From: an uncultured Candidatus Saccharibacteria bacterium
GTDB lineage: Bacteria; Patescibacteriota; Saccharimonadia; Saccharimonadales; Saccharimonadaceae
DNA length: 64,000 nt
NCBI GenBank assembly: GCA_964483335.1
Contig: CAZAAA010000002.1
Location: 852-64,851, forward strand
Direction: 5' to 3'
Of this stretch, positions 12,563 through 18,920 are shown piece by piece. The notes beneath the pieces were generated by a model. The model was not told the DNA's origin. It worked only from the letters and a program-made list of their open reading frames with translations, and made no database searches. A program made the translations under genes and the position numbers. Position 1 is the first letter of the stretch; every line of letters starts with the position of its first letter.

Positions 12563-12565
12563 CTT

Positions 12566-12571
12566 TGGTGC
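12566..12571 (+). repeat. Left att core (TGGTGC)
   Basis: Identical to 18754-18759 and in the same reading frame as recombinase codon 533. Confidence 0.75.
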
Positions 12572-12861
12572 ACCTAGTGCAGGCGAATTGGAACCTAATC
12601 TATAAGGAGTTATTACGCTGGCAAAGCCTACTAGAGGAGTCAGCACTTACGAAACACATCCCCTACTCCCGTGGAACCAGTATGTTGTATGCAAGTGGAC
12701 AGGAGCGGATGCGGGAGAAAACCAACACGAGGGACTGTTCACATCACCAAGCGAAGGGGCAGAGACACGAGAAACCGAGAACGGCCAAATCTGATGAAGA
12801 GGACGAACACGAGGACTCGGACAACGCACACGAACTAAGAAGCGAGGAGCGGTCTCCGTGA
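12568..12861 (+). other. Detached alternative 3' end of the recombinase gene (VHLVQANWNLIYKELLRWQSLL...), rejoined only in the excised form
   Basis: Frame open for 97 codons starting exactly at the att core in the recombinase frame; no promoter or RBS of its own. Confidence 0.65.
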
Positions 12862-12892
12862 GGCAGGTGCAAATGCAACTGACGACACACGA
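12725..12892 (+). repeat. Five ACACGA direct repeats bracketed by an 8-bp inverted repeat
   Basis: ACACGA at 12725, 12765, 12807, 12828, 12887; ACTCCCGT (12665-12672) / ACGGGAGT (12893-12900). Confidence 0.7.
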
Positions 12893-13144
12893 ACGGGAGT
12901 TTTTAAGTTGCGGCGGACGCTCGTTTTTGCGAACGGCGACCGCCTTCTACCTCTATAGTAGCACATATTTTGGAGTTGTTTTTTTGTAGGGTTGGACTTT
13001 TCCACAGGGAGTTGCACTCACCTCTGTTAACCTCAAAACTAATCGGGGGTGGGGTTGCTAAGAGGAGGTGTTTTACACACAAGCACCTGTGCCAACACTA
13101 AAAAACAGGTAGCAATAAGGGGTGAGAAGTGATATAATTAAGTA

Positions 13145-13528
13145 ATGAAGAAACGAGGTAAAATCACTCCAAACGGTGTAGTCTTGAAGACTCACGAGAA
13201 CGCTACTGCGGTTTTTCTGACAGAACAGGGTTTTGATGTTGACCTCATCCCTACTAGTAACATTGAAGGAGTGCACACTCCTGATATTAAGATGAACGAG
13301 CTCAAGTGGGAGATGAAGGCACCACTTGGCGAAGGTAATCAGTTGATGGAGAACACCATCCAGAGAGCACTCAAACAATCGCCAAACATCATCATTGACC
13401 TTCGCCATACGAAGAGACATCAGACAAAATGCTTGAGAGAACTGGAAAAACAGTTTGTAAGCAAGAAGAGCCTAAAACGCCTCAAAATCATCACAAAGAG
13501 CGGAAAAACTCTTGATTTTGAGAAGTAG
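13145..13528 (+). CDS. Stand-alone CdiA C-terminal-like (PD-(D/E)xK, tRNase-type) nuclease
   Basis: THE...TPDIKMNELKWEMKAP...IQRALKQSPNIIIDLR pattern; TATAAT 6 nt before ATG. Confidence 0.78.
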   Translation: MKKRGKITPNGVVLKTHENATAVFLTEQGFDVDLIPTSNIEGVHTPDIKMNELKWEMKAPLGEGNQLMENTIQRALKQSPNIIIDLRHTKRHQTKCLRELEKQFVSKKSLKRLKIITKSGKTLDFEK

Positions 13529-13540
13529 TAGGAGTATAAT
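13512..13540 (+). promoter_or_regulatory. Sigma70 promoter overlapping the 3' end of the nuclease gene
   Basis: TTGATT (13512-13517), 17-nt spacer, TATAAT (13535-13540). Confidence 0.8.
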
Positions 13541-13546
13541 CATAAG

Positions 13547-13620
13547 TAATGAGGGCAGGACCTGCAGTGTAATATGCGGGACACCGCCCTCTTTTAGGTT
13601 GGCTTCTAGCCACCTTTTTT
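13547..13620 (+). ncRNA. Putative small structured RNA downstream of the CdiA-C-like nuclease (candidate RNA antitoxin)
   Basis: GAGGGC-A-GG/CC-GCCCTC outer stem, CCTGCA/TGCGGG inner stem, then terminator hairpin 13596-13615 plus T tract. Confidence 0.6.
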
Positions 13621-13660
13621 GATGAAAAAACTACCACTGAACTAATGCTACAATCAGAGT

Positions 13661-14200
13661 ATGAGAGTAACAAAATATACTGATGACACTAAGGTGAAAC
13701 TGCTTACGCATATCAGGGAGGGTAGAACTGTCAAAGATGCTTGCTCACTAGTTGGCATCTCTGATATGACGCTCACTCGCTGGAGAAGACGTTTTTCTGA
13801 TTTTGATGCAGATTACTTAAAAGCAGTTGAGAGCCAGTGGCAGAACCTTGATGCGACCAAAGAAAGTGGTGTAAGGACTTACAGGCGAAACACCACAAAA
13901 CTCCGTCAAAAGGCAGAAAAACAGGCTAAAATCCAGAAAATGGCAGAAAAAGAACAGGAACTAGCAAGGACTGGCAAACCGCTTACTTACGAAGGCTTAC
14001 GCATCCGTTATGGTAGCATCGCTGATGACGAGCCGCTAATGCCCTGCATTAACCCTAGTAATGGTTTTGTGGAGTATCTGAAACGACAAAGTGGCAACTA
14101 TGTCCAGTTCTCTTGTTCACTTGATGCGTTCCGCAAAAGTAATCCTGCGTGGTATCGCAGGCTAGTGGATGAGAACTCTGCTCTTGATGTTGGTGATTAA
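13661..14200 (+). CDS. HTH protein, terminase small subunit/phBC6A51-like N-terminal domain
   Basis: IREGRTVKDACSLVGISDMTLTRWRRRFSDF helix-turn-helix; TACAAT 6 nt before ATG. Confidence 0.65.
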   Translation: MRVTKYTDDTKVKLLTHIREGRTVKDACSLVGISDMTLTRWRRRFSDFDADYLKAVESQWQNLDATKESGVRTYRRNTTKLRQKAEKQAKIQKMAEKEQELARTGKPLTYEGLRIRYGSIADDEPLMPCINPSNGFVEYLKRQSGNYVQFSCSLDAFRKSNPAWYRRLVDENSALDVGD

Positions 14201-14389
14201 GACGTGATTTTACACGCTCCGCCCCTGTTGATGCTTGCCTTGTTGTCTACCTCAAAGGTTGGACTTCTGGAAAAATCAAAATAGACAGATTGGACACAAG
14301 TAGGGTTTTGACCTGAACAACGTTTTTTGCCGACCTCATATAATATACTCACCAAAAAATGCAAGACCCAAAAGGAATATAATGGACTT

Positions 14390-14719
14390 ATGAGTAGAAA
14401 AATCAAACTAACCGAGAAAAGGACGCAGATTATCGTAAGGGCTATACGAGATGGCTACACAATCACTGATGCTTGCGAGATGGCTTGTATCGGACGGAGC
14501 ACCTACTACAAGTGGCTTGAGGAGTTCCCAGACTTCAATAAGGCGATTGTAGAGGCAACAGATTCGCAATGGAAGTATGCGACTTGGCGAGTGCGACACG
14601 GCTACAGGAGTTATGAGCGGCATCATCTGAACCGCCCATCTGTTAACTACCGAAGTCCAAACAATATGCCTTTTGTGATGCCGCCAGTAGAGGGTTTTAG
14701 TCTTGATGAGAATGGCTAA
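14390..14719 (+). CDS. HTH protein, paralogue of 13661-14200
   Basis: IRDGYTITDACEMACIGRSTYYKWLEEFPDF; shares SQW...G.R.Y.R tail; TATAAT 6 nt before ATG at 14390. Confidence 0.65.
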   Translation: MSRKIKLTEKRTQIIVRAIRDGYTITDACEMACIGRSTYYKWLEEFPDFNKAIVEATDSQWKYATWRVRHGYRSYERHHLNRPSVNYRSPNNMPFVMPPVEGFSLDENG

Positions 14720-14734
14720 AATCTGATGGAAGTA

Positions 14735-14763
14735 TTGACAAAATTAAGCATATGTGCTATAAT
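14735..14763 (+). promoter_or_regulatory. Consensus sigma70 promoter with extended -10
   Basis: TTGACA (14735-14740), 17 nt, TATAAT (14758-14763), TG at 14755-14756. Confidence 0.9.
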
Positions 14764-14769
14764 GGAGTT

Positions 14770-15204
14770 ATCGTCAGGAATGATGATATACGATACTCGC
14801 TGAAGTTGAAGTCTCTGAGCCAAGGCGAAGAGATGGGAGCAACCAAGTTAAAAAGTGGTCTGGAAGATGCAAGCGGAAAATCCGCAAATAAGTTCCCAAA
14901 AGCACCTTAAGAATGCATCTCCACGTATCGTTATTAAAAACCAGTTAGAGGGGCGAATTACTAGCCAAAGTTCTTATATCAACATCCAGCAGAGACTGGT
15001 GAGATGGGAAGTGAACCAAGGCGAAAAGACGGTTTGAGAAGTAGTAGCCAGACGAAATATGCTCAGGTGAACCTGTGAAAAGGGAGTGCGAAATAGCACG
15101 CAAATCTTCCCAAAGCACCTTACACCTTCCATCCTGTAGTTCAATCAAATCTCATATAAGCCCCTATTATCGCCCTGCTCAATTACGAGCAGGGCTTTCC
15201 TTTT
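14770..15204 (+). ncRNA. Putative ~435-nt two-domain structured non-coding RNA
   Basis: Consensus promoter, no credible ORF or RBS, GNRA-capped hairpin, two long-range closing helices, internal sequence repeat, terminator at 15172-15204. Confidence 0.65.
15172..15204 (+). terminator. Intrinsic terminator
   Basis: GCCCTGCTC-AATTAC-GAGCAGGGC followed by TTTCCTTTT. Confidence 0.85.
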
Positions 15205-15243
15205 GTTTGGTTCCAAACGATGCTTTGGTATGGTATAATTAAA

Positions 15244-15369
15244 GTGTTCCATCATTCAAATTTGTAGTAAGTTCACCCCTAACGAGGTGGAGCAAAGAAT
15301 TGAACCCAGAGCGGAGCACCCGCTCCAGTTGGCTCAATCGCTTACTGCAGAAAATGAGTGATGGAACAC
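15244..15369 (+). ncRNA. Putative ~125-nt three-way-junction RNA (ncRNA or cis-leader)
   Basis: 15-bp closing stem GTGTTCCATCATTCA/TGAGTGATGGAACAC, 9-bp TGTAGTAAG/CTTACTGCA stem, two internal hairpins; TGGTATAAT at 15231-15239. Confidence 0.6.
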
Positions 15370-15450
15370 CCATAGCGGGTGTTCCGCTTAGTTTAGGGGA
15401 AGCCCGTGCTTATATTAAACATAATGGCGGGCTTCCCGCTGGAGGAAAAT

Positions 15451-16632
15451 ATGGACAACAAATACGAAGCAACGGGTAATACCGGCCAAAGCAATGCTGA
15501 GACTGGTTGGGAAGGTGTAGCGGCATTGGCTGACGATTTCCAAACCAATAGACCAATAGCAGAAGCAGGGGCACAACAACCAGAGACAATCTCACAGCCT
15601 GAAGTAGTTTTATCTGCCAGTAATAATGTTTATCGTGAAATTGCTAAAGACGCTTTGAAAAATTGGAACGGCTTATCAGATGAAGAAGCCTCAGAAAAAG
15701 TAAATGGAGCATCAGTAGAAGAACTTGAAAGCCAAGTCTATGCTGGAGACTCCATTAAAGCCGCTGTGTCTGGAATTGGAAGTGCACTAGAGAGTAGAGG
15801 TATTACTTGGCAAGGTGAAGAAGACTTACTGAGTTCAGTATTAGACGGAGAGAAACAAGATAGTTCCTTTTCTACCCTCTCTGAATGTTTGGAACGAGTT
15901 GACGACAAAGAGGGGTTTGTCATAGATGTATTGTCAGATATTCATAAGAACTGGGCTGAAACAAATCTCAAGAAGTTTGCAGATGAAAAACGTAGGAACA
16001 AACAATACCAGTTTATGCCTCTTGAGTTGATTGGGAATAAAGAGGCTAGGGCAGACTTATTGTTCCTAGAGCCAATCTTAAAGGCTGGAAACTTTGGAGA
16101 TGAGCACTTTGGTGAACAACTAGACCAGAAATACACTGAACGGCAAAATGAGTTTCTGGAGAAAAATAACTTGCATAGTTTTGGAGACGTAGCATCAGCA
16201 CTTCAAGACCCTGAAAACTGGAATAATGGAAACAATGATGTAATTCCAGAATGGTGGAGCAAACTCCCAGACACCGCTGTTAAAATTGGCGGATGGATTG
16301 GAGATACACCTGCAGGTATTGAAGAAGGCTTAAGATTAGGAAAGAAAGCAAGTGCCGTTAGAATTGCCGCTCAGGTTGAACAGAGAGTTCCTGCTTTGGC
16401 TGATAACGCTCCCGTCAATGGCGAAAACTACCCGTGGCATTATGATGGTGGAGACCGTGATACTTGGCAAACTGGCACAATGCCAGAATGGGTGCTGGGC
16501 AAAATCCATAGAACTTGCGAAGCATACGAACAAAACGGCAAAGTTTTGACTAAGACCGAACTCAGGAAATCAGTTCTAGAGGAGTTTAACTATAGTAGCG
16601 GCTCAGCAATTTGCACCAATGCGATTGTCTAA
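15451..16632 (+). CDS. Acidic hypothetical cargo protein (393 aa), possible RyR-like helical domain
   Basis: Long ORF, GGAGGA RBS before ATG 15451; LSDIHKNW...FMPLELIGNKEARAD segment; terminator hairpin at ~16645-16684. Confidence 0.75.
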   Translation: MDNKYEATGNTGQSNAETGWEGVAALADDFQTNRPIAEAGAQQPETISQPEVVLSASNNVYREIAKDALKNWNGLSDEEASEKVNGASVEELESQVYAGDSIKAAVSGIGSALESRGITWQGEEDLLSSVLDGEKQDSSFSTLSECLERVDDKEGFVIDVLSDIHKNWAETNLKKFADEKRRNKQYQFMPLELIGNKEARADLLFLEPILKAGNFGDEHFGEQLDQKYTERQNEFLEKNNLHSFGDVASALQDPENWNNGNNDVIPEWWSKLPDTAVKIGGWIGDTPAGIEEGLRLGKKASAVRIAAQVEQRVPALADNAPVNGENYPWHYDGGDRDTWQTGTMPEWVLGKIHRTCEAYEQNGKVLTKTELRKSVLEEFNYSSGSAICTNAIV

Positions 16633-16916
16633 TGCGAGTCGTAAGCCCCTTGTAGAGCCTCTCAGAGGCTCACAGGGGCTATTTTAGTGCTACGGGAGTG
16701 CACTTTTACAAGTAGATTGGTGAAGGTCTTGACGTTGGTTCCAAATGGGCTATAATGTAGGTATAGACACCTTATGAGAAAATAGCCTTTTACCGCATCG
16801 GAAAGGATGTAAGCGGTAAAAAAACAAACTCTTGTCCCACTTAGGCAACTGGGAATGACACCTCGTTTTATCTAAGCACTGACGAAGTTGTTAGTGCAGA
16901 AAAATGGCAGGTCTCT

Positions 16917-17156
16917 ATGGCTTCTGTAGCCGATTTGCCCAGTAAACTCACTGCGGCAGAAAGAACCAAGTCGCAAGCCGTCAACTTTATGAGCGTCAAA
17001 GAACTGAGAAAAGTTCTTGGCAAAAATGCTGACGGTATTGACGACCGACACCTCTTAGAAGTTAGTGTTGCCATCGGTAAAATCTCGCTGATGATGACGA
17101 CTAACCCAGAACTGATTGAGAAAATCACCAAATCTTATAACGCCAAGAAAGGTTAA
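16917..17156 (+). CDS. Small protein upstream of the recombinase, putative recombination directionality factor
   Basis: MSVKELRKVLG helix motif; stop 3 nt before the recombinase start; function inferred from position. Confidence 0.5.
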   Translation: MASVADLPSKLTAAERTKSQAVNFMSVKELRKVLGKNADGIDDRHLLEVSVAIGKISLMMTTNPELIEKITKSYNAKKG

Positions 17157-17159
17157 ATT

Positions 17160-18920
17160 ATGGCAAATATGAAAACTCCCGAGCAGGGAGACAAGAAAAA
17201 AGCGGTTGGCTATACCCGTGTGTCAACTGAAGAACAAGTAGACGGGGCTTCTAAAGAAGTGCAGAAACAGGCAATTCTGGAGTATGCGAAGAAATACAAC
17301 CTAGAAATCTCAGAACAAGACATCTACTGGGATGGCGGGTTTTCCGCCAAAAACGCAAACCGACCAGAACTCCAGCGGATGCTGAGTGAAATTGAAGACG
17401 GCACCATCAAGCCAGATGTGCTGATTGTTTACAATCTATCACGCATCTCACGCAACCTAATGTCGTTCTCAGGAGATATTGCTCCAACTCTAGCAAAACA
17501 TAAGGTGGAACTCCGTTCTACCTGTGAGGACATCAACGAAACCCCTCAGGGCAAGTTTATGATGAACCTCTCTATTGCTCTTCATCAATTGGACAACGAC
17601 ACGAAGAGTAAGACTACTTCTGATAATATGAAAATGGTCGCATCTGAAGGCTACTGGCAAAGTTACCCGCCACTGGGAATGGTTAACGACCACGTGCAGA
17701 CGGGCTTAAAAACCAAAGACGGTAAGCCACGCTACCGCACTATCTTGAAGCCAGATTTGCGGAACGACACTGCTCAAAAGGTTAAAGACGTGCTAGACTA
17801 CTACGCACAGGGTGATAAAACTAAGGCTCAGACGCTAAGGTATGCAGGCAAAATCGGGCTCAAGACTAGAGCAGGTAAAGCCCTGACTCTCCAGTCTCTG
17901 ATTGAACTACTCCAGCAACCCGCTCTGGCTGGCTACATCTGTTCACCAACTTTGACTGATGGACAGTATATCAAAGCCCAGTGGGACGGTCTTATCTCAC
18001 TGGAGCAGCATCTGCTGATTTTGGAGTTGCTCCGTGGTGGGAGCGACCCAGATAAAAAGCAGATTTACCGCAGAAATAATCCAGACTTCCCTCTTAAGGG
18101 GACGCTCATCTGTGGATGTTGTGGCTATGCGGCACGTGGCTCTTGTCCACGATGTGGAAGCGGTGCCAAAAGTCCACGCTATCACTGTTCTGAGTGTGTT
18201 GGTGCTGGCTCTATCAAGCCAGAAAAGATGCACGAGAAGTTCATTGACCTTCTTGCTCGCATTACGCCTGTCAAAAGCCTTCTGAGAGCCTTTGGGCTCT
18301 CTATGGGGCGAGCGATGAAACACAGCGTAGAAAAGGCTCAGAAAACGATTGCGGAACAAGAAGCGTTGATTAAAACATATGCAGAGCAAGAAGAGGAGTC
18401 GTTCTTCTTAGCCAGCACGCATCAACGCTCGGAAGCCGACCATAATCGTCTTGTTGCTATCTTGCAAAAGAAAACCAAGCAGGCTGAACAAGCGATTGAA
18501 GAGGCTAAAGAACTTAAAAGCATCAGCGAGCACAAGATTAAGTGCCTTGTAGATTTGATGGAGAACCCCGCCGACTTATGGCGGGGGGCTTCCCTTGAAG
18601 TGCGACAGATGCTCCAGAAGATGATTTTTCCGAACGGACTAAGTGTCAATTTGAAGACTGGAGAGTTTGCAGAAATTGGAACCAACGACATCAGCCCGCT
18701 CTTCTCTGTTATTTGCACCAAAAATGGCTCAAAAGAGCCAGATTATTCAGATGTGGTGCCCGGGACTGGACTCGAACCAGCAAGCCGTGAGGCATATGCT
18801 CCTAAGGCATACGTGTCTACCAATTTCACCACCCGGGCAAGGGTTGGTGGTTACGAGCTTTATTATAGCAGATTTTACTGTGGCTGGCTAGAGTTTTGTG
18901 GCGGCACTGGGGCTGGCTGA
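17160..18920 (+). CDS. Large serine recombinase (resolvase, recombinase and Zn-ribbon domains); integrated-state C-terminus reads antisense through tRNA-Leu
   Basis: GYTRVSTEEQ catalytic Ser motif, YNLSRISRN, PLKGTLICGCCG...YHCSEC zinc ribbon, coiled coil. Confidence 0.93.
   Translation: MANMKTPEQGDKKKAVGYTRVSTEEQVDGASKEVQKQAILEYAKKYNLEISEQDIYWDGGFSAKNANRPELQRMLSEIEDGTIKPDVLIVYNLSRISRNLMSFSGDIAPTLAKHKVELRSTCEDINETPQGKFMMNLSIALHQLDNDTKSKTTSDNMKMVASEGYWQSYPPLGMVNDHVQTGLKTKDGKPRYRTILKPDLRNDTAQKVKDVLDYYAQGDKTKAQTLRYAGKIGLKTRAGKALTLQSLIELLQQPALAGYICSPTLTDGQYIKAQWDGLISLEQHLLILELLRGGSDPDKKQIYRRNNPDFPLKGTLICGCCGYAARGSCPRCGSGAKSPRYHCSECVGAGSIKPEKMHEKFIDLLARITPVKSLLRAFGLSMGRAMKHSVEKAQKTIAEQEALIKTYAEQEEESFFLASTHQRSEADHNRLVAILQKKTKQAEQAIEEAKELKSISEHKIKCLVDLMENPADLWRGASLEVRQMLQKMIFPNGLSVNLKTGEFAEIGTNDISPLFSVICTKNGSKEPDYSDVVPGTGLEPASREAYAPKAYVSTNFTTRARVGGYELYYSRFYCGWLEFCGGTGAG
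18754..18838 (-). tRNA. trnL: tRNA-Leu(TAG), integration target
   Basis: GCCCGGG/CCCGGGC acceptor stem, TATGC-CTTAGGA-GCATA anticodon arm, long variable arm, CCA; TGCTATAAT promoter upstream. Confidence 0.96.

Follow-up and report, generated by a model that had tools for sequence, protein, structure and literature searches.

What do positions 14735 to 15204 of this Saccharibacteria contig encode? The stretch analyzed here (the window) is 64,000 nucleotides (nt) of CAZAAA010000002.1, from a genome of 643 kb that is 97% complete. The initial annotation read the locus as an orphan, two-domain structured RNA with its own promoter and terminator. That reading raises three questions: whether the RNA is real, whether it belongs to a described family, and what it may do. 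The locus very probably represents a real, new family of structured RNA, a member of no described one. It is predicted to be an independently transcribed noncoding gene on the + strand, running from ~14768 to ~15200 (~430 nt). Two signals bound the gene.

14735 to 14763, + strand: promoter, TTGACA-17-TATAAT with TG at -15/-14, a 12/12 sigma-70 consensus with an extended -10.
15172 to 15204, + strand: intrinsic terminator, GCCCUGCUC/GAGCAGGGC with a U-rich tail, conserved, with 3 pairs changed on both sides (double-changed).

A scan for sigma-70-type sites found this promoter as the sole 12/12 site within 13000-17500. The pattern TTGAC[AT]-17-TGn-TA[TC][AG]AT is kept in all homologous copies with upstream sequence (9/9). 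The terminator stem (15172-15195) contains 9 bp, with 7 G-C, and is followed by the T-run TTTCCTTTTG. It is present in all full-length copies, as are the 5' hairpin and both domains. Promoter and terminator thus stand as first proposed. Compared across contexts, the copies share a conserved unit that extends from a few bases before the -35 box to the U-tract. The 437-nt transcript has a minimum free energy (MFE) of -121 kcal/mol, with z = -3.2 against dinucleotide shuffles.

The stretch had been described as ~435 nt with no open reading frame (ORF) led by a ribosome-binding site, and this was upheld; no ORF is conserved. The ORF list between promoter and terminator contains only short, unsupported frames of 52-67 amino acids (aa). 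No open frame is common to the copies, and the longest frames differ in frame and strand between copies. Pairwise comparison of the window copy with six other lineages gave 67 indels, of which 60 have lengths not divisible by 3. The stretch is therefore noncoding.

Homologues were retrieved from two Saccharibacteria genera. They comprise nine other full-length copies (64-96% identical), two copies cut by contig ends, and two decayed remnants. The minimum pairwise identity among full-length copies is 64%. Loci L012 (95.4%) and L015/L016 (90.7%) were found beside relatives of a 393-aa protein that is encoded downstream of the RNA in the window. Locus L025, ended by a contig end, was retrieved by a motif pattern scan of metagenome contigs; it is the sole homologue among the eight loci returned, and the other seven are chance matches. 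BLAST over 400 family genomes retrieved G412 (78%, from the other genus) and the 3' remnant G442. Genome G502, with an internal deletion, was retrieved by a search within the genus of G412. A sequence profile retrieved G737, which BLAST had missed, from a class-wide sample of 401 genomes. It also retrieved G884, G980, G976, G1047, G1041, and the contig-cut G788 among 369 genomes of the RNA's own genus. The copies that BLAST missed and the profile later found are 64-72% identical.

Strong matches occurred in 8 of the 369 own-genus genomes. The family-wide profile search was positive in 2 of 95 genera and the class sample in 1 of 186. The RNA is sporadic, with copies in ~2% of species in its own genus and in a second genus. 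No match to it was found by BLAST against phages, its own genome, and 100 relatives, or by a pattern scan of viral contigs. Weak profile matches (L052 to L057; expectation values [E] of 1e-4 to 1e-2) were set aside; the two inspected, L052 and L053, resemble coding sequence, and the others were treated as spurious. Logan and European Nucleotide Archive (ENA) contigs were sampled via neighboring proteins. The family size is probably underestimated because these contigs were reached only in this way.

Both remnants keep recognizable ends. Of the copy at G502:C65:301-532 (L039), the first ~113 nt and the final ~112 nt remain, and the middle has been lost. The copy at G442:C1:121470-121592 (L040) contains the last ~100 nt and the terminator.

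The structure was tested on a 12-sequence MAFFT alignment. The helix plan was drawn from a scan of all column pairs for stacked conserved pairings and from comparison of the two domains. It contained 21 helices with 102 pairs. Standard pairs filled 96.0% of cells, compared with 36-44% when the 3' partners were slid by 1-3 columns. Double-sided changes were found in 29 of the 102 pairs and in 0-5 pairs in the slid controls. None of 500 shuffles matched the observed paired percentage, the double-change count, or the covariation score. At least one double-changed pair was present in 17 of the 21 helices. Compensatory substitutions go beyond the controls, as expected of a structured noncoding RNA (ncRNA), and the alignment indicates that the base pairs of the RNA are maintained by compensatory changes across about a dozen Saccharibacteria genomes. 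Unpaired positions are also constrained, with 77 of 206 unpaired columns invariant. The model contains 56 G-U/U-G cells and 14 A-C/C-A cells; given this excess, the RNA is read from the + strand, the only strand that fits.

The predicted elements, all on the + strand, are listed below (P, helix; PK, pseudoknot).

14769 to 14788 (14769-76/14781-88): P0, 8-bp 5' hairpin UAUCGUCA/UGAUGAUA, paired in 98.7% of cells.
14790 to 14931: module 1, a three-way junction with helices 92-100% paired.
14790-96/14925-31: module 1 closing helix P1, ACGAUAC/GUAUCGU, 2 pairs double-changed.
14799-801/14846-48, 14805-08/14840-43, and 14811-15/14830-34: module 1 arm A, helices P2s, P2a, and P2b, with 2 pairs double-changed in P2s.
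14855-58/14921-24, 14866-70/14915-19, and 14873-76/14882-85: module 1 arm B, helices P3a, P3b, and P3c, with 1, 2, and 2 pairs double-changed.
14835 to 14839: PK1 5' strand, GGGAG, in the P2b/P2a bulge of arm A, paired with 14893-97 in 100% of cells.
14893 to 14897: PK1 3' strand, UUCCC, within the arm B internal loop; after it comes the conserved AAAAGCACCUUA, a motif that recurs in module 2.
14951 to 15163: module 2, with the plan of module 1 plus extras, matched by the domain 1 covariance model.
14951-54/15160-63 and 14956-61/15136-41: module 2 outer helices P1' and P1'', 2 pairs each double-changed.
14964-66/15020-22, 14970-73/15013-16, and 14986-89/14996-99: module 2 arm A, helices P2s', P2a', and P2b', with 2 pairs double-changed in P2s' and 1 in P2a'.
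15028-31/15130-33, 15080-83/15125-28, and 15086-89/15096-99: module 2 arm B, helices P3a', P3b', and P3c', with 2 pairs double-changed in P3b' and 1 in P3c'.
15047-51/15064-68: P3x', a hairpin inserted in module 2 arm B, 3 pairs double-changed.
15006 to 15011: PK2 5' strand, GGGAAG, in the arm A bulge of module 2, paired with CUUCCC at 15106-11.
15106 to 15111: PK2 3' strand, CUUCCC, followed by AAAGCAC (15112-18), invariant by sequence comparison.
15036 to 15039/15150-53: PK3 candidate, GAGA/UCUC, the latter in the module 2 3' tail, paired in 100% of cells.

In this model, each module is a three-way junction whose arms are tied side by side by a pseudoknot of 5-6 bp, which links a G-rich bulge to a UUCCC strand with a conserved AAA(A)GCAC after it. 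PK1 and PK2 are the most telling part of the covariation evidence. PK1 covaries: four sequences have GGGAG/UUCCC, and six have GAGAG/UUCUC. Read directly from the sequences, PK2 occurs as GGGAAG/CUUCCC, GGGGAG/CUUCCC, AGUAAG/CUUACU (the G737 group), and GGGAGA/UUUCCC (G1041); in G412 it is GGGAG/CUCCC, a paired deletion. The 88.7% pairing scored for PK2 is an undercount, with one gap misplaced by MAFFT in the G737 (AGUAAG) group. PK3 changes from GAGA/UCUC to GAGG/CCUC in seven sequences. It is kept as a candidate because it is short and has a single covarying column.

The domain closures named in the initial annotation recur in this model with compensatory changes, ACGATAC/GTATCGT for domain 1 and, for domain 2, GGGC/GCCC (14951-54/15160-63). 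For the 5' hairpin, said to carry a GNRA cap, the 8-bp stem is conserved but the GNRA loop is not. The stem has one double-changed pair (C-G to U-A) and two pairs changed on one side, and its loop is GGAA, GAAA, AAA, GAAU, AAAA, or GUUU among homologues. A proposed kissing contact between the domains, AGUCUCUG/CAGAGACU, was not conserved; 65% of cells pair across homologues, and its AGUCUC is the 5' strand of the conserved hairpin P2b. Three further pairings were tried and rejected, each broken in the G737 or G1041 lineages: the MFE hairpin ACCA/UGGU, a long RNAalifold helix in module 2 (GAAG/CUUC, UUUG/CAAA), and the 11-bp pairing GAUGGGAAGUG/CACCUUCCAUC.

The two modules, of ~140 nt and ~215 nt, are only distantly alike, and the evidence indicates that they are homologous. 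The window contains CCAAGGCGAA..TTCCCAAA(N)GCACC exactly twice, and none of 100 shuffles contains it. A covariance model of domain 1 gave domain 2 as the best secondary match in all six other sources that contain domain 2 (10.7-20.9 bits). On its own whole genome, the model matched domain 2 at 22.5 bits (E 0.019). The modules have unpaired nucleotides in common: AAAAG between the arms, and AAAU before and AAAGCAC after a pseudoknot strand. The claim that both domains repeat the same ordered motifs is thus confirmed by the pattern counts and the covariance model. Its coordinates were exact for AACCAAG (14841 and 15014), and several others were 1-3 nt off. The reading of a structured RNA with a duplicated module is supported by the covariation and by the module covariance model. 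The single-module covariance model (R3) gave weak extra matches on 40 genomes and no single-module relatives. A match in G017 (31 bits) was spurious and lies inside an 880-aa ORF; those in G024 and G068 (~23 bits) were poor and partial.

The RNA was compared with known families using Rfam 15, with 4,227 models that include GOLLD, ROOL, OLE, raiA, HEARO, RNase P, SRP, 6S, tmRNA, riboswitches, and ribozymes. For 14735-15204, cmscan returned nothing at gathering score. At E<=10 there were only chance matches to unrelated models, at 13-18 bits against thresholds of 35-90. The search against Rfam thus gave no significant match to any family, in agreement with the initial failure to place the RNA among tmRNA, RNase P, SRP, and group I/II introns. 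ARAGORN found no tRNA or tmRNA in the RNA region, and Tandem Repeats Finder found no tandem repeat in 14600-15300. A housekeeping RNA is near universal in its clade, and this RNA was found in 8/369 genomes of its own genus. It does not contain the tandem repeats of ~34-36 nt beside an endoribonuclease toxin that mark a ToxI-type (type III) antitoxin. It does not occupy the 5' untranslated region (UTR) of a conserved gene class with a competing expression platform, as a riboswitch or cis-acting leader does. A Csr/Rsm sponge, which carries multiple GGA motifs in loops, was rejected; the genome encodes no CsrA (PF02599), control genomes do match, and homologues do not keep the GGA in the 5' loop. 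A recombinase or nuclease guide RNA (IS110 bridge RNA, omega-RNA) was rejected because there is no obligatory enzyme linkage, and no TnpB, IscB, or IS110 gene was found in the host element. In full-text literature searches, no RNA of this kind was found described for Saccharibacteria or Patescibacteria.

In the window, the RNA lies in a small element that contains the features below, including two helix-turn-helix (HTH) proteins.

12563 to 18839: host block of 6.3 kb with a CdiA_C nuclease, two HTH proteins, the RNA, a second leader, a 393-aa gene, a 79-aa ORF, and a recombinase.
13145 to 13528: CdiA_C-domain nuclease, 1.2 kb upstream of the RNA, with no visible immunity gene.
13661 to 14200 and 14327 to 14719: HTH1 and HTH2, with best PHROG matches to small terminase subunits (E 2e-8 and 3e-9).
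15231 to 15450: second structured leader, upstream of the 393-aa gene, with its own TGGTATAAT promoter and a long stem, GTTCCATCATTCAAA...TGAGTGATGGAACAC.
15451 to 16632: gene for the 393-aa protein, with no Pfam match.

The recombinase is of the large serine type and abuts tRNA-Leu. The block 12563-18839 is 97% identical to L012:2115-8388, including the tRNA-Leu end, and the flanking genes differ on both sides, which is consistent with recent mobility of the element. Syntenic elements without the RNA were retrieved at L006/L007, L017/L018, and L019. They keep the nuclease, both HTH genes, the leader and its gene, and the recombinase, with only ~270 nt between HTH2 and the next gene. In an alignment, window positions 14709-15201 replace ~45 nt of L017 (the stop-codon region and a small terminator), and HTH2 is 89% identical between the two. 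The metagenome assembly ERZ28019015 contains RNA-plus and RNA-minus variants of the element. The copies of the RNA are found in the following contexts.

Window, L012, and L015 copies: after HTH2 and before the 393-aa gene.
G884 copy: after HTH1-HTH2, then other genes.
G788 copy: before a 344-aa relative of the 393-aa protein.
G737, G980, G976, and G1047 copies: convergent with a conserved 206-aa gene beside ftsH, with the other side variable.
G412 and G1041 copies: among unrelated genes.

These comparisons indicate that the RNA is a separable cassette, from promoter to terminator, that moves into and out of a small serine-recombinase element. It also decays in some genomes (the G442 and G502 remnants). 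Its first description as lying inside an integrated element is true of the window copy, but the cassette is independent and is also present in ordinary chromosomal contexts. A related recombinase was found in one of the eight RNA-carrying genomes. The suggested partnership with the adjacent HTH proteins failed. Six of the eight genomes with an intact RNA (G737, G980, G976, G1047, G1041, and G412) encode no HTH2 homologue anywhere in the genome, and elements with a near-identical HTH2 lack the RNA.

Other features of the element were recorded. It encodes no large terminase, capsid, or replication gene, and it recalls phage satellites that redirect packaging. The 393-aa family is acidic, has no Pfam or PHROG match, and contains at least 75 relatives (P0001-P0075), nearly all metagenomic. 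It has a conserved N-terminal TGWEGVAA and is encoded on the element and in chromosomal contexts. The second leader was also retrieved at L006:4779-5000, L017:2240-2483, L019:~650-889, L010:4774-5000, and L011:4775-5000. It is conserved far more widely than the two-module RNA, is also found with ordinary chromosomal copies of this gene family (for example, beside infB or yebC), and looks like a family-specific 5' UTR element. After the RNA-less element, L006:8546-9740 carries a second gene with a CdiA_C domain and a GmrSD_C (type IV restriction-like) gene. This cargo suggests that defense or conflict genes lie beside the element family. In genus g54, the 100-200 nt after the RNA terminator (TATATACAATATTCCATCCTTTATATCCTCCCTATACAATGTTAAAACCTGG...) form a dispersed intergenic repeat. 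It has at least five copies per 17-20 kb and was retrieved at L038 (G412:C20), L040 (G442:C1), and L025:345-540.

Five other explanations of the locus were weighed, three of which (a cis-acting leader, a DNA-level site, and small peptides) are contradicted by tests in this analysis. Small proteins, for example from the 25-codon frames opening at the two GAGAUGGGA motifs, are barely credible as the product. In the window, both modules contain AUG GGA and ~24 open codons, and the listed ORFs could be counted with these. Homologues nevertheless interrupt or shift these frames; in G412 a stop comes after 15 codons, and the G737 group lacks the AUG of module 2. Indels are nearly all 1-2 nt, and no Shine-Dalgarno sequence lies at the proper distance. 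Pac sites usually lie in or beside terS. The repeats might be such a site, or an operator array for the small-terminase-like HTH proteins, and the PHROG matches of HTH1 and HTH2 and the ordered repeated motifs fit this. It is still a highly improbable reading, since base pairing rather than sequence is conserved (29 double-changed pairs), G-U is tolerated on one strand only (56 against 14 cells), promoter and terminator are conserved, and six carrier genomes lack HTH2. A cis-regulatory leader, or tandem riboswitch, of the 393-aa gene (15451-16632) would explain why the RNA is directly upstream of that family in the window, L012, L015, and G788. Its two aptamer-like tandem modules also recall tandem riboswitches. 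We consider this very unlikely. The strong terminator is separate from the modules, with ~8 nt between them and no alternative pairing. A separate TGGTATAAT promoter and the conserved leader follow, and both persist in RNA-less elements. Other genes lie downstream in G884, G412, and G1041, and four genomes have the RNA and its neighbor in convergent orientation. From the differing downstream genes and the convergent neighbor, we conclude that the RNA is not cis-acting.

Two further explanations keep the RNA as a trans-acting molecule. It may be a base-pairing regulatory RNA, or an RNA antitoxin, directed against mRNAs or against the CdiA_C-like nuclease in the manner of a type III toxin-antitoxin system. 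A strong promoter and terminator without an ORF are typical of small RNAs (sRNAs), and the nuclease 1.2 kb upstream has no visible immunity gene. We regard this as unlikely. The nuclease is kept without the RNA in L006, L007, and L017, and L006 has two nucleases and no RNA. By eye, no CdiA_C-like ORF was recognized among the listed ORFs within ~5 kb of the G412 copy, and none in the 1.5-kb flanks of G737, G980, G976, G1047, and G1041; no Pfam scan was made of any of these neighbors. There is no ToxI-type repeat array and no CsrA to sponge. With ~430 nt and 102 conserved pairs, the RNA is far more structured than seed-pairing sRNAs. It may instead be an RNA-only machine, either a self-assembling homo-oligomer (as ROOL, GOLLD, and OLE) or a ribozyme, with the modules as an internal pseudo-dimer. 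It is large, ornate, pseudoknotted, stand-alone, and partly on a mobile element, and it contains many invariant unpaired nucleotides (77/206 columns). ROOL and GOLLD are reported to be mobile-element RNAs that form cages (bioRxiv 10.1101/2024.12.08.627333). This explanation is doubtful, if less so than an antitoxin. No ribozyme or large-RNA model in Rfam matches, and the sole proposed contact of an intermolecular type (the kissing pair) is not conserved.

The best explanation as a whole, and one that we hold to be reasonably probable, is a new, sporadic, partly mobile, stand-alone structured RNA that acts in trans via two folded binding modules. That it is specifically a two-site binding platform is a tentative proposal. 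The 5' hairpin and the terminator hairpin would protect both ends and give a long-lived RNA, as expected from the general features of 5'-end-dependent decay. The RNA would act in trans as a stable folded molecule, and its two modules would be paired sites for a small ligand or for a dimeric or two-copy protein. The output would be sequestration or scaffolding and not control of a downstream gene. It has no expression platform, which points to trans action of this kind.

Several points weigh against this explanation. Transcription is inferred from the promoter and terminator signals. The family contains ~6 independent lineages, so few events underlie the covariation counts. The same sequences served both to derive and to test the helix model, a circularity against which the slid control guards only in part. 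Three to four helices are invariant, including P2a, P2b', and P3a'. Competing invariant pairings are possible, GAGAUG/CAUCUC and GGAA/UUCC in module 1 and CCU/AGG in module 2; all three are fully paired with little or no double change and may be alternative conformers. No neighbor gene is constant across the contexts of the copies, which argues against a dedicated adjacent protein partner as well as against cis-regulation. Sequence comparison gave no pointer to a ligand or a protein partner.

By analogy, the plan of the RNA is most like that of a tandem aptamer (the glycine riboswitch), and its lifestyle is closest to those of raiA and ROOL/GOLLD. Like the tandem glycine riboswitch (RF00504), it has two homologous junction modules, head to tail, with conserved unpaired junction nucleotides. 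Where the glycine riboswitch forms a 5' leader with an expression platform, this RNA is bounded by its own promoter and terminator, and no downstream gene is conserved. It does not match that covariance model, and its modules are ~140 and 215 nt, each pseudoknotted. The raiA motif RNA is an ncRNA of Firmicutes and Actinobacteria. PMC12968392 describes it as a stand-alone, pseudoknotted bacterial ncRNA of unknown function, present in over 2,700 species, with its own promoter and terminator, a design that our RNA shares. No match to the raiA covariance model was found, and raiA is single-module and widespread, whereas this RNA is limited to two genera and ~2% of species. ROOL and GOLLD, to which the initial annotation already compared the RNA, are likewise orphan large structured RNAs often found on prophages or mobile elements. 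Their covariance models do not match, this RNA is at most about half their size, and its multimerization is without support in this analysis. To our knowledge, internal duplication has not been reported for ROOL or GOLLD. Aptamers of the THF-I and SAM-I type are multi-helix junctions with arms held parallel by a long-range bulge/loop pseudoknot. The junction-plus-pseudoknot topology is similar, but the likeness goes no further than design: neither sequence nor model matches, no ligand is known, and an expression platform is lacking.

Saccharibacteria have genomes of ~0.6-1 Mb and almost no described ncRNA biology beyond housekeeping RNAs. To devote 430 nt and a consensus promoter to an RNA gene is therefore notable in so small a genome. 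With this RNA, the few large orphan bacterial RNAs (OLE, GOLLD, ROOL, raiA, and HEARO) gain another family; for several of them, surprising architectures or partners emerged later. The category is familiar; the family itself is new but narrow. As the family is small, its value for now is that of a well-founded lead and not of a solved mechanism. The two-module design is a testable structural hypothesis, and the ~140-nt module is small enough for probing, ligand screens, and cryo-electron microscopy. A more speculative possibility is that the cassette is an RNA-only gene that gives ultra-small, epibiotic Saccharibacteria an accessory function. Its modules would then act as a pseudo-dimer within one molecule, sensing or sequestering a ligand or protein in trans, or would assemble into an RNA-only complex. 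A decoy role in conflicts among the satellite-like integrative element, phages, and the host cell is possible. If the pseudo-dimer cassette exists, it would give the Candidate Phyla Radiation a functionally new class of mobile structured RNA.

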